Origin: Escherichia coli
GTDB taxonomy: Bacteria > Pseudomonadota > Gammaproteobacteria > Enterobacterales > Enterobacteriaceae
Length of the DNA: 64,000 nt
Direction: 5' to 3' (one strand)
Assembly: GCF_045037415.1 (NCBI RefSeq)
Contig: NZ_CP173438.1
Shown here piece after piece: positions 25,901 to 29,813 of this stretch. Within the stretch, counting starts at the first letter, position 1; each line of letters opens with the position of its first letter. The position numbers were made by a program.

Positions 25901-28900
25901 GCTTCGGTGCCTTTCAGCGCCACCGCCCAGTCTTCCATCGGCACTTCATCAAGCAGACGCCGACGCACTTCTTCGTTCTGGCGGCTGAGGATAAAGAAGT
26001 CGTACATCTCATCCTGGATCTGCCCCAACACCTCTTCGTCGCGTTCGCGCATCTGGTCGAGGATCACCTGCTGATTGCCCTGGAAGCGGTTGACGATATC
26101 CGCCGCCTGTTTGATGCCTTTTACCTTCGAGCCATGTTCCGAAAGTACCGACAGGCCACGTTCAATCAGGCGGTCCAGCTCATCCACCACGTCGCGGTTG
26201 ACGTCGTTGAGTTTCGCCACCCGGTAGAGAATTTCGTTTTGCACCGATTCGTTGAGATAAGAGAGCACCGCTGCCGAGATTTCCGGCGTCAGAAACGCGA
26301 GGAACACCGCCTGCAATTGCAGATGTTCTTCGGAAATCAGCATCGCCAACTGGCGTGGTTCCACCCATTGCAGGCGCGCCATCCGCGAGCGAATCTCATC
26401 GCCATAGATGCCGTTGATCACGCTGCTGGCGATCTCGGTACCCAACGCCTTGTTAAGAATGCCCTGCAACATGGATCGCGATGCGCCGTTGATCCCGCTC
26501 TGTTCGCGGAACTCGTCAAAGAAGTGGTTGATCACTTTACGCGCCATGCTGGTTTTGACGCCGGAAAGTCGCGCCATGTTTTCGCTCAGGCGCACCACTT
26601 CTTCGCGGCTGAGTTTTTGCATCACCGTCGCCGCTGCCTCTTCGCCCAGACACAGCAGCAGGATCGCCGCCTGTTCCAGGTAGCTGTTGCTCTTATTTGT
26701 TGTCAATTCGCTCATTGCTGGTGATCCATTGTCTGAGAACTTCGGCTACGCGATCGGTGTCGCTCATGGCCAGTTTTTGCAGGAACTCGAGTTTCACTTC
26801 GAGGCCAGAACTTTGTGACGGCAGGCTGTCATCGCCGGGCAGCGACGGCAGGTCGACGTTTTTGCGCTCCTCTTCCGGCATGGCAATCCACGGTTCGCTG
26901 ACGGCTTCCGGTTCTGGTGTGATAACCGGCGCACGTACCGCCGTCAGCCGTTTCATCAACGGACGCACCACGAAGAACAGCAGCAACAGCGCCAGCAGGC
27001 CGCAGCCAATCAGCCGCACCCAGGCCAGTACGCTGTCATCTTTCCACAGTGGAATAACCGGTTCGACAGGCACCGCCTGCGGTACAAAGTTGAGTAACGA
27101 TAAGGAGAGATTGTCACCACGCTGGGCGTCGATCCCGGCGGCATTGTTCAGCAACGCGGTCAGTTGCGTGGTTTGCTCCGGCTTCCAGTTTTTCAGCGCC
27201 GGAGCGTTTTGATTGAGTACCACCGCCACGTTGAGGCGTTTCACCGCGAAGCCGGGATGCTGAATATGCTGGACGCTGCGGTCGTAAGAGTAGTCGCGCT
27301 TACTTTCGCTGTGTTTGGAAAGCGCTTCCGGCGAGCGGTTTTCTTCCGTACCGTTGGTCATCTGATTCGCTGCAATCGGCGGACGGTTACTGAGCGAACC
27401 AGGCACGCCCATCGCCACCTGATTGGTGTCGCTGTCCAGCACGCTCTCTTCGCGGTTGATTTTCGGCGCGTCACCGTAGTGTTCCTGGGTTTCGTCGATG
27501 GTGCTGAGGTCGAGATCCGGCATCACACTGACGCGGTAATTCCCCGTGCCAACCAGCGAATCCAGCACGTTCGCCACGCTGGCACGGGTTTTGTCCTGAA
27601 TATCTTTGAGGATCTGATCGCGTTTACGGGTCGCGGCAGAAACCGCCTCGCCTGCGCCAATGCCGTCGGTCAGCAGATTTCCCGCCTGATCGACGACGCT
27701 AACTTTGCTGGCCTGTAGCCCCGGAATACTGCCGGACACCAGATGCACAATGGCGTTCACCTGGTCCATATTCAGCTTCGCGCCGTAATGCAAGCGCACC
27801 ACCACCGAGGCGCTGTTTTGCGGCTCATCGCTGACCACAAACGAGCTTTCTTCGTTGAGCGCCAGATGCACCCGCGCGCTTTCCACCGCGTCCAGCGACA
27901 TGATGCTCTGCGCCAGCTCCCCTTCGAGACTGCGTTTATAGCGCACGTTCTGCACGAACTGACTGCTGCCGAGCACTTCGTCTTTATCCATCAGCTCGTA
28001 GCCGCTGGGCAATATCGCCTGCACGCCTTTCGCGGCAAGGGTCATTCGCGTTTTCGACAGTGCATCTTCCGGCACCAGAATCTGCCCGCTCTGCGGGTCG
28101 ATGCGGTAGGTGAGCTTTTCGCCGTCCAGCACCGTGACAATCTGCGACACGGGCAGATTTTCCTGGCGTCCGTAGAGCGAAACGTAGCCGCGATTACCGG
28201 TCCACAGCACGCTGACGATAATCGCCGTCACCGCCACGGCAAGCCCCACTCCCGCCATCAACACCCAGCGTTTGTTATCTACGAGATGCAGTCGAAACGC
28301 CGGAAACGCCTGGGTTAACTTCTTTATTTGTGCATTCATAGGGTTAGATCGACATACTCATCAGGTCGTTAAACCCGGTGGCGATTTTATTGCGCACCTG
28401 CACCAGCGCGGAGAAAGAGAGCGACGCCTGCTGGCTGGCGATCATCGCACCTGCCAGGTCATCACTTTTGCCCGTGTCGACAGCCGTTTGCTGCTGCTCC
28501 GCCACCTGCTGGAACTGATCAACGTGACCAAGCGCGCCGTACATAATGCGGTTAAACGACACGTCCGGGTCTGTGGAACTGAAGGTCATGGAGGGTAGCA
28601 CCGGCGCCTGGGCGTTGGCCTGCATCCGCTGCACGTCCTGCATGATTTGCGCCTGCATGGTGCTGTTGATTGTGGTAATGCTCATTTTTAACTTCCGGGT
28701 CAGGAGAAAACTTCGATACCTTGCTTGCGCATGGAGGCCAGCCGATAGCGCAGTGCGCGCGGGGTAATGCCTAACAGGTCGGCGATTTTGCTGCGGTTGC
28801 CCTGATATTTACGCATCAGGTCGGCGATATATTGATACTGCGCACTTCGTCCGTGCTGGCCTAAATCGCGGGTTTCGGCAATGTGGACGGCGGGCTGAAC

Positions 28901-29813
28901 AGGCCATTGCAGTTCGCTGTGGTCGGCAATGTCAGTTTCCGGCAGGCCTAAGGCATCCGGGTAAATCACGCCGTCGCGGTTTAAGATCATTCCTCTCTGA
29001 ATGGCGTTTTCCAGTTGGCGAACATTTCCGGGCCAGCGGTAATTAAGTAGCGCCCGGCGTGTGGATTCGGACAGGGTGATATTTTTCACCAGCACCGTGG
29101 CATATTTTTTAATAAACGACTCTGCCAGCGGAATAATATCGTTCAGACGTTCACGCAGTGGCGGCATGGTTATAGGAATAACCGCCAGACGATAATAAAG
29201 ATCTTCACGAAAACGTCCAGCAGCCACGTCCTGTTCCAGATTTTTATTGGTGCAGGCAATCAGGCGAAAATTGAGTTTGATTTGTCTATTGCTGCCTAAT
29301 CGCTCAACCTGCTGTTCCTGCAATACGCGTAATATTTTGGCCTGTAATGCCAGCGGCATATCGCCAATTTCATCGAGCAATAAGGTGCCGTTATTAGCCA
29401 GTTCCATTTTTCCTGGCACGCTGGCAATTGCGCCGGTAAATGCGCCTTTGTCGTAGCCAAATAAGGTCGCTTCCAGCATATTTTCCGGGATCGCCGCACA
29501 GTTCACGCCGATATAGGGCGCGTTATCATTTTCACCAAAGGCTACGGTGTGAATATATTTCGCCACGCACTCTTTCCCCGCGCCGGTTTCGCCCTGAATG
29601 AGCACCGGTACGTTAAAGGCGGCGACACGCTTTGCCAGAGTAAAAGCGTTAATGCTGGAAGCGGCAGTTGCAATAAGTTCAGACATAGGGTGAACGATAT
29701 AAGTAGCGACAGAAAACAGGATGTTCTGAAGCGTATCACCGGTGGGATTAACAAGTTCGAATTAAACGATAATAAAAATATTATTTGTTTATAAACAACT
29801 AGTTAGCAATGTA

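Follow-up and report, generated by a model that had tools for sequence, protein, structure and literature searches.

The lafK gene and its product

The window analysed here is a 64,000-nucleotide segment of the Escherichia coli chromosome (contig NZ_CP173438.1) that carries a Flag-2 (lateral-type) flagellar locus, in which lafK is found between lfiM and lfiE. Based on the open reading frame (ORF), Pfam matches, the RefSeq coding sequence and the ratio of nonsynonymous to synonymous substitution rates (dN/dS), lafK (28700..29686) encodes a 328-amino-acid sigma-54 enhancer-binding protein (EBP) that lacks a receiver. An earlier note on this DNA had placed the ORF at the same coordinates; its strand is corrected here to minus. 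The start codon identified in the ORF scan is the ATG at 29686-29684, and RefSeq annotates the same 987 nt as WP_001292199.1, a 'sigma-54 interaction domain-containing protein'. The FliE-like gene lfiE (28344..28685, minus strand; ORF and RefSeq) lies 14 bp downstream and leads lfiEFGHIJ, the genes of which are presumably co-transcribed with lafK. On the other side, the divergently oriented neighbour is the FliM-like gene lfiM (30073-30924; ORF and RefSeq).

The AAA+ sigma-54 interaction domain spans residues 6-172 (29171..29671, minus strand; PF00158, E = 1.2e-63, 214 bits) and is followed by AAA_lid_14 at residues 178-246 and by a C-terminal Fis-type helix-turn-helix (HTH), HTH_8, at residues 284-317 (28736..28837, minus strand; PF02954, E = 7.5e-9, above the gathering score). 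No Response_reg match was obtained with Pfam, and no domain precedes residue 6, bearing out the layout described in the earlier note, with the AAA+ domain first, the HTH last and no receiver. All catalytic motifs are intact: Walker A GETGAGKE (residues 32-39), the GAFTGA loop (residues 81-86; 29429-29446, minus strand, by motif position) and Walker B LLLDE (residues 102-106), as well as the arginine-finger region FREDLYYRL (residues 159-167) and sensor II WPGNVRQL (residues 218-225). With these AAA+ motifs, the HTH and cognate sigma-54 promoters in the locus, LafK can be regarded as a bona fide enhancer-binding protein.

The divergent intergenic region between lafK and lfiM (29687..30072) measures 386 bp, not the 387 bp given in the earlier note, whose other observations on this region, a pair of repetitive extragenic palindromic (REP) elements and the lack of a frame for an N-terminal domain, do stand. 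Each of the three frames on the lafK strand contains 8-9 stops, the longest open stretch being 43 codons, and the lafK ATG is the earliest ATG, GTG or TTG past the in-frame stop. Moreover, tblastn searches with six receiver N-termini and MotY_L revealed no remnant of either in positions 27000-32000 of the window or in 25 enterobacterial loci; the matches were scattered, with E-values of 0.23 at best.

Distribution and descent of the short form

At least 80% of a 1.8-kb query covering 28300-30100 is present in 1276 of 5426 complete E. coli genomes, with 100% identity in strain SK1144 and other strains. The listed full-length homologs from Citrobacter, Leminorella, Pseudescherichia, Atlantibacter, Budvicia, Hafnia, Pantoea, Pragia and other enterobacteria are about 324-365 aa long and lack PF00072. 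A separate search of representative proteins, swamped by the whole EBP superfamily and giving no names, was used solely to select short homologs. A locus scan with one genome per species yielded 25 enterobacterial Flag-2 loci (L009-L033), in each of which the lafK ORF encodes 327-366 aa and extends N-terminally beyond E. coli residue 1 by no more than 35 residues. The E. coli start ATG aligns with the starts in Pseudocitrobacter, two Citrobacter species and Phytobacter, and dN/dS values of 0.04-0.16 between E. coli and five other genera indicate purifying selection. Given this constant length in 25 of 25 loci, the aligned start and the low dN/dS, the short form of lafK is a conserved gene under selection rather than a local truncation. 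In protein sequence, LafK of Pseudocitrobacter shares 95% identity with that of E. coli (dS 0.38), compared with 83% for the Citrobacter protein.

We also checked whether the short ORF could be a strain-specific truncation, a decaying pseudogene or the product of a mis-called start, with the receiver encoded upstream. An obvious Shine-Dalgarno sequence is not seen at the ORF, Flag-2 has been described as non-functional in some E. coli (PMC4481668) and REP elements have inserted upstream, all of which would fit decay of this kind. The outcome nevertheless counts against it, as neither the shared length and start nor the dN/dS values and the full set of intact catalytic motifs are those of a decaying gene, and the upstream frames are all closed and hold no receiver remnant. 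We therefore consider this reading extremely unlikely.

Four database proteins with 62-73% identity, the receiver-bearing P0051, P0069 and P0118 and the ACT-domain protein P0079, were considered as counter-examples and rejected as assembly chimeras. They are 462-521 aa long, are encoded on metagenome contigs of 2-5 kb and join foreign N-termini, presumably those of E. coli NtrC or TyrR, to LafK C-termini at FREDLYYRL and PPLRER. Records of this kind could lead automated domain censuses astray.

A different form of LafK is found outside the sampled enterobacterial loci. The LafK of Vibrio campbellii, whose gene is flanked by motY_L and the lateral fliE, has 444 aa; its residue 123 aligns to residue 1 of the E. 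coli protein, with 47% identity across the AAA+, lid and HTH remainder. Residues 7-113 of the Vibrio protein match Response_reg over the whole profile, scoring 22 bits against a cut-off of 30.2 bits. Full-length Vibrionaceae orthologs are mostly 441-456 aa long, and the same extension is present in the lateral-type LafK proteins (437-460 aa) of Aeromonas sp. RU39B, Pseudoalteromonas arabiensis, Aestuariibacter and 'Citrobacter sp. R56'. Alignment with canonical FlrC/FleR receivers shows that the acidic pair is lost in all five long LafK receivers and that three of the five, from Vibrio, Aeromonas and 'Citrobacter R56', carry S, S and G, respectively, in place of the phospho-acceptor Asp, while the conserved Thr and Lys are often substituted. 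Consistently, the long LafKs score only 18-37 bits against Response_reg, versus 102 bits for FlrC. Comparison of the N-termini thus gives a divided picture: the other sampled enterobacterial Flag-2 LafK proteins are devoid of a receiver as well, and neither a close Flag-2 ortholog encodes one nor does any frame upstream of E. coli lafK align to one, whereas the Vibrio-type protein retains a degenerate receiver of about 120 aa. The gene order differs too: in Vibrio, Pseudoalteromonas and Aestuariibacter, lafK is immediately preceded by motY_L, whereas Enterobacterales lack motY_L and have the divergent lfiM operon abutting lafK.

Despite its genus name, 'Citrobacter sp. R56' (NZ_CP069159.1; L038, 1-7023) does not carry a close Flag-2 locus, its 444-aa LafK with a degenerate receiver being 49% identical to that of E. 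coli and placed in the LafK clade apart from the short enterobacterial sequences. The gene order is flgA-like, a 426-aa ORF, flgM/flgN-like ORFs (calls read from the translations), lafK, fliE and fliF. A match in Aeromonas caviae (L008) was discarded as a LafK, as it belongs to the polar flrA-flrB-flrC cluster, and served as a reference for canonical receivers.

A neighbour-joining tree was built from the AAA+-HTH core, using 328 columns and 100 bootstraps. The LafK sequences form a clade in it (support 100) that is made up of the five long ones and 16 short enterobacterial ones, the latter being monophyletic themselves (support 100). FlrC and FleR, with canonical receivers, fall outside this clade, and four other receiver-less activators encoded upstream of fliE in unrelated clusters branch separately from LafK. 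The short enterobacterial proteins thus make up a single clade nested in that of LafK, next to FlrC/FleR, which is most simply explained by one old deletion. Whether the short form is ancestral or strain-specific, which the earlier note had held could not be told, can now be answered: it is neither specific to a strain nor ancestral to lateral flagella, and instead reflects an old loss common to all 25 of the sampled enterobacterial Flag-2 loci.

Other activators at this gene position have lost the receiver as well. Those of L003, L004, L005/L006 and L073, 336-350 aa in length and encoded directly upstream of fliE in polar-type clusters, lie outside the LafK clade, which implies independent losses. 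In L005/L006 (5240-7053), the activator gene follows a HisKA/HATPase kinase gene after a gap of 6 bp, so that a kinase stands beside an activator without a receiver.

The opposite polarity, with a receiver-less LafK as the ancestral state and a later gain of the N-terminal domain in Vibrio, Aeromonas and Alteromonadales, would be accommodated by the tree insofar as the long LafKs are not ordered relative to the short clade, and it could draw on the EBPs without a receiver that unrelated clusters encode upstream of fliE. These EBPs, however, branch separately from LafK. In addition, the long LafKs have N-termini with homology to receivers, as seen from the nearly full Response_reg profile in V. 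campbellii and the alignment with FlrC, and canonical receivers occupy this position in the sister group FlrC/FleR. A gain would thus require re-acquisition of a homologous domain at the same site, making this polarity very unlikely.

The most economical order of events runs from a canonical regulator with a kinase, through a LafK that has no kinase and whose receiver is dead, to the enterobacterial LafK in which the domain is deleted. LafK belongs to the FlrC/FleR/LafK lineage and has lost its whole N-terminal receiver, probably once, in the ancestor of the sampled enterobacterial Flag-2 loci. Before that deletion, the receiver would have decayed to a non-phosphorylatable pseudo-receiver, as is still found in Vibrio, Aeromonas and Alteromonadales; the deletion would then have taken out motY_L together with the 5' third of lafK, a new start arising in the linker between receiver and AAA+ domain. 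A single deletion of this extent would account for both differences of Enterobacterales, and we infer it for that reason.

Promoter blocks and predicted LafK regulon

Two AT-rich blocks are conserved between lafK and lfiM. The one on the lafK side (29740..29800, minus strand), conserved in five genera (alignment A1), contains a sigma-70-like promoter composed of TTGTTT (29793-29798), an 18-nt spacer and TATTAT (29769-29774), the latter, as the -10 element, reading TATAAT in C. amalonaticus. This promoter was picked by eye; the scan tool instead called the neighbouring TTGCTA-18-AATAAT. The block is a candidate class-I lafK promoter or regulator site. The second block (29938..29975; alignment A1) lies on the lfiM side of the REP pair and shares a direct repeat (D1) with the first: two AT-rich 23-nt copies, at 29767-29789 and 29934-29956 and 74% identical, flank the REP pair within the conserved blocks and may be paired operators bound by one regulator.

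Upstream of lafK, no match in a sigma-54 scan (12-position consensus, GG and GC invariant) exceeds 7/12, and a palindrome scan of the same region found no copy of the motif described below; the divergent lfiM operon likewise lacks both elements. The operons lafK-lfiEFGHIJ and lfiM...lfhA are therefore probably class-I operons read by sigma-70, in which case LafK output would be set by the level of lafK transcription. It is reasonable to place the control of LafK outside phosphorylation, as only the conserved sigma-70-like block, and neither a sigma-54 promoter nor a palindrome, is found upstream of its gene.

The REP pair itself, a bacterial interspersed mosaic element, consists of two hairpins inverted relative to each other at 29810/29815-29844 and 29859-29894 (inverted repeats I1-I3). 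In alignment A1, REPs at this site number two in E. coli, about ten in Pseudocitrobacter and none in Citrobacter and Phytobacter. Since the REPs sit between conserved blocks and their numbers differ by lineage, the pair is best read as a lineage-specific insertion into the divergent promoter region, outside the conserved design. In Pseudocitrobacter faecalis (L010, 3113-4000), an array of about ten units occupies the site of E. coli 29810-29894, and Citrobacter and Phytobacter carry unrelated sequence there. A RayT REP-associated transposase gene is located at 36522-37019, about 6.6 kb from the pair.

Elsewhere in the window, three promoters with good matches to the sigma-54 consensus are accompanied by a common palindrome. 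The lfgB promoter TGGCACGGCGATTGCT (14784..14799, minus strand) matches at 12/12 positions. In an alignment of the lfgA-lfgB intergenic region from seven genera (E. coli, Citrobacter, Pseudescherichia, Leminorella, Enterobacter, Cedecea and Erwinia), the main invariant blocks are the promoter motif TGGCA.G-N4-TTGC, a TCA...TTA stretch and GGAAA...TTC, the rest being largely variable. The last block belongs to the palindrome GGCGGAAG-N5-TTTCCTCC (14848..14868), located in the 5' end of lfgA, which deviates at one position from the core GGAAA-N5-TTTCC (14851-14865), keeps a fixed distance to the promoter in the seven genera and is a candidate LafK enhancer site for lfgB.

A second promoter, CGGCACGCTTATTGCA (16445..16460, plus strand; 11/12), precedes the cargo operon of variable region VR1, which encodes a hypothetical protein without Pfam match and an 812-aa GT2 glycosyltransferase (17474-19912). 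The palindrome CGCGGAAA-N5-TTTCCGCC (16387..16407) lies 45 bp upstream of its -24 element. The VR1 variable-region genes thus seem to form one regulon with the rod and hook genes. The third promoter, TGGCACGCCTTTTGCC (410..425, minus strand; 11/12), belongs to lafB, a FliD-like gene whose ATG was placed at 378 and which runs off the window. Upstream of it lies a palindrome at 463-483 (two mismatches to the 16-base pattern) and a weaker adjacent one at 486-506 (three mismatches).

The 9-mer TTCCGCCTG, which corresponds to the right half of the palindrome, occurs four times in 64 kb, against 0.59 expected, and three of these four copies lie 45-56 bp upstream of the -24 elements of the three promoters, in the same orientation. 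Perfect copies of GGAAA-N5-TTTCC are found only twice in the 64 kb, at the lafB and cargo promoters. When the longer, degenerate palindrome pattern was used, the remaining matches in the window included REP sequences. Palindrome and promoter together look as expected for the enhancer site of a dimeric HTH protein, and the sole sigma-54 activator recognised in the annotated locus is LafK, the predicted ligand.

No convincing site was found upstream of lafA in a scan for sigma-28 promoters; in SK1144, the lafB operon region carries a FliA-like sigma-28 gene. The lafA-lafB intergenic region of the window is interrupted by an insertion sequence (IS) of the IS3 family (560-1991; ORFs at 602-1132 and 1237-1959, with HTH and rve domains). 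It lies 53 bp from the nearest palindrome match and splits lafA from the lafB promoter region, leaving promoter and palindromes untouched. In strain SK1144 the element is missing here, and an overlap of 3 bp is suggestive of a target duplication.

Proposed control of LafK and comparison with known systems

PspF, HrpR/S and receiver-deletion variants of NtrC1/DctD-type activators are EBPs without a receiver that are active when made. By analogy with these proteins, LafK would be active once made. It would bind GGAAA-N5-TTTCC palindromes whose centres lie some 75-85 bp before the transcription start and, with sigma-54, open at least three promoters, those of the lfgB rod/hook operon, the lafB operon and the glycosyltransferase cargo operon. 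The lafK-lfiEFGHIJ operon and the divergent lfiM operon would be class-I, with conserved sigma-70-type promoters, and output would be set by lafK transcription. Taken as a whole, this explanation, comprising receiver loss in the FlrC/FleR/LafK lineage, a LafK active when made and a palindrome/sigma-54 regulon, is in our view likely.

Several points weigh against it. The deeper nodes of the tree are weak (bootstrap 29-47) and do not resolve the long LafKs as a grade, so that a single receiver loss is the parsimonious reading rather than a proven one. Many classical enhancer sites lie farther from their promoters than the palindrome does (about -75 to -85), and it could be the site of another protein. 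A 49-kb lateral region of V. campbellii contains no perfect palindrome, nor does the motif occur near sigma-54-like sites there, the only matches of at least 10/12 seeming to fall within coding sequence; a specificity shared with Vibrio LafK is thus not supported by this comparison. Likewise, the lafK sigma-70 promoter is put forward from a consensus match plus conservation, and lafK expression in V. parahaemolyticus has been reported to be RpoN-dependent (PMC9817140), which differs from what is proposed for E. coli. Finally, some E. coli strains are held to have a non-functional Flag-2 (PMC4481668), and for E. coli LafK we infer activity, its constitutive state and palindrome binding from relatives, motifs and promoter context.

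A candidate for control of lafK is LafZ, a 297-aa ToxR/CadC-like protein (3572..4465, plus strand) with a winged HTH at residues 42-114 (PF00486, E = 1.4e-13). A hydrophobic stretch at residues ~160-180, read by eye as a transmembrane segment, precedes a C-terminal domain of about 115 aa, and the label ToxR-like seems fair. No LafZ homolog was found in 49 kb around V. campbellii lafK. A BMC Genomics survey reports that lafK, lafW and lafZ are conserved in the majority of strains with Flag-2 and do not occur in flag-1 (PMC6993521). In the material examined, LafZ therefore co-occurs with receiver-less LafK, which is suggestive without amounting to evidence for the candidate link between LafZ and lafK put forward in the earlier note.

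Alternatively, LafK might be restrained by a trans-acting partner, either LafZ or a small unannotated Flag-2 protein, in the manner of PspA-PspF and HrpV-HrpS, control then being post-translational rather than exerted on lafK transcription. The two best-studied receiver-less EBPs are indeed both regulated by a partner. Both are grouped with LafK in the census cited below (PMC3162934), and V. parahaemolyticus LafV has been described as repressing surface-regulon genes when LafK is present (PMC9303241). Three VR1 ORFs of 115-182 aa are without Pfam match, and LafZ, with its conservation in most Flag-2-bearing strains and its absence around V. campbellii lafK, could be such a partner. On the other hand, PspA-, HrpV- or FleN-like domains were not detected in the ORFs scanned, and the winged HTH of LafZ, being DNA-binding, points to promoter control and not to binding of the AAA+ domain. 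Partner control thus seems unlikely, and we retain control at the level of lafK transcription.

A bolder version of transcriptional control can be offered tentatively, with confidence well below even. Flag-2 would have been rewired at its origin, one deletion removing motY_L and the dead pseudo-receiver together; LafZ would have become the sensor acting on the AT-rich block of lafK, and a membrane signal would set the level of a constitutive LafK, and through it the palindrome/sigma-54 promoters including that of the glycosyltransferase cargo operon.

Any domain search reveals the receiver-less layout of LafK, which by itself changes nothing. It is already in the literature, a 2011 census listing 'PspF, HrpRS, LafK' as EBPs without a signal domain, type Ic (PMC3162934), and its importance is modest. 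The published statement that LafK lacks a signal domain fits the enterobacterial proteins and not the Vibrionaceae sequences examined, which keep a degenerate receiver. What the present analysis adds is small and testable, namely this difference between Vibrio and Enterobacterales, the three-promoter palindrome regulon and the conserved block upstream of lafK. The difference matters when results from Vibrio are carried over to Flag-2 of E. coli or Yersinia, while the predicted regulon and the upstream block provide concrete targets for finding out when, and whether, the largely uncharacterised E. coli Flag-2 is expressed. The series from canonical receiver through pseudo-receiver to none would also be a tidy case of a two-component regulator turning into a dosage-controlled activator.

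Among known systems, PspF resembles LafK in domain layout, as the earlier note had proposed: both proteins start at the AAA+ domain, residues 4-235 of LafK aligning to PspF residues 8-239. The likeness does not extend to descent. LafK misses both PspF equivalog cut-offs (TIGR02974, 236.8 against 443.55 bits; NF008622, 204.2 against 529 bits), and in a ranking of PDB structures PspF is more distant from LafK than FlrC, NifA, NtrC1 and FleQ. The closest solved structure is the AAA+ domain of V. cholerae FlrC (4qhs), with 256 bits versus 184 for PspF. Furthermore, PspF has PspA as a partner, whereas a PspA-like partner of LafK is not known and was not detected in the ORFs scanned. The receiver-less state of LafK is a secondary loss within a response-regulator lineage. 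LafK also scores below the NCBIfam cut-offs for FlbD and FlgR. A cyclic di-GMP site like that of FleQ was also considered; the arginine following Walker A in FleQ has no counterpart in LafK (TVAFGENDNAPY), a point not relied on here.

FlrC, FleR and FlaM share with LafK the gene position upstream of fliE and are 45-51% identical to the E. coli protein, about as much as Vibrio LafK. They differ in having a canonical receiver (102 bits, with the DD, D, T and K residues) and an adjacent FlrB-type histidine kinase, neither of which belongs to E. coli LafK. No FlrB-like kinase was matched in L021 and L024, the two enterobacterial loci in that scan, and the E. coli neighbour is lfiM. Receiver loss in an activator at the FlrC position has occurred independently in Plesiomonas shigelloides, where, in the fusion protein FlaLM, the N-terminus of FlaL is joined to residues 121-468 of FlaM (PMC7526173), and in L003, L004, L005/L006 and L073. 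These non-LafK activators lie outside the LafK clade, some of them beside or fused to a kinase-like gene.

The nearest counterpart is the V. parahaemolyticus-type LafK, which belongs to the same clade (bootstrap 100), is likewise encoded directly upstream of the lateral fliE-fliFGHIJ and, as in E. coli, has no cognate kinase gene found beside it. It is distinguished by its length of 437-460 aa, its degenerate receiver of about 120 aa and motY_L upstream, the latter two missing in E. coli, and by the reported RpoN dependence of lafK (PMC9817140), compared with an E. coli upstream region free of a sigma-54 promoter. The regulatory order is closer to that of Aeromonas hydrophila lateral flagella, whose class-I genes, including lafK, are described as sigma-70-dependent (PMC4481668): this hierarchy resembles the one proposed for E. 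coli, with sigma-70-read class-I operons followed by a LafK-driven class II.

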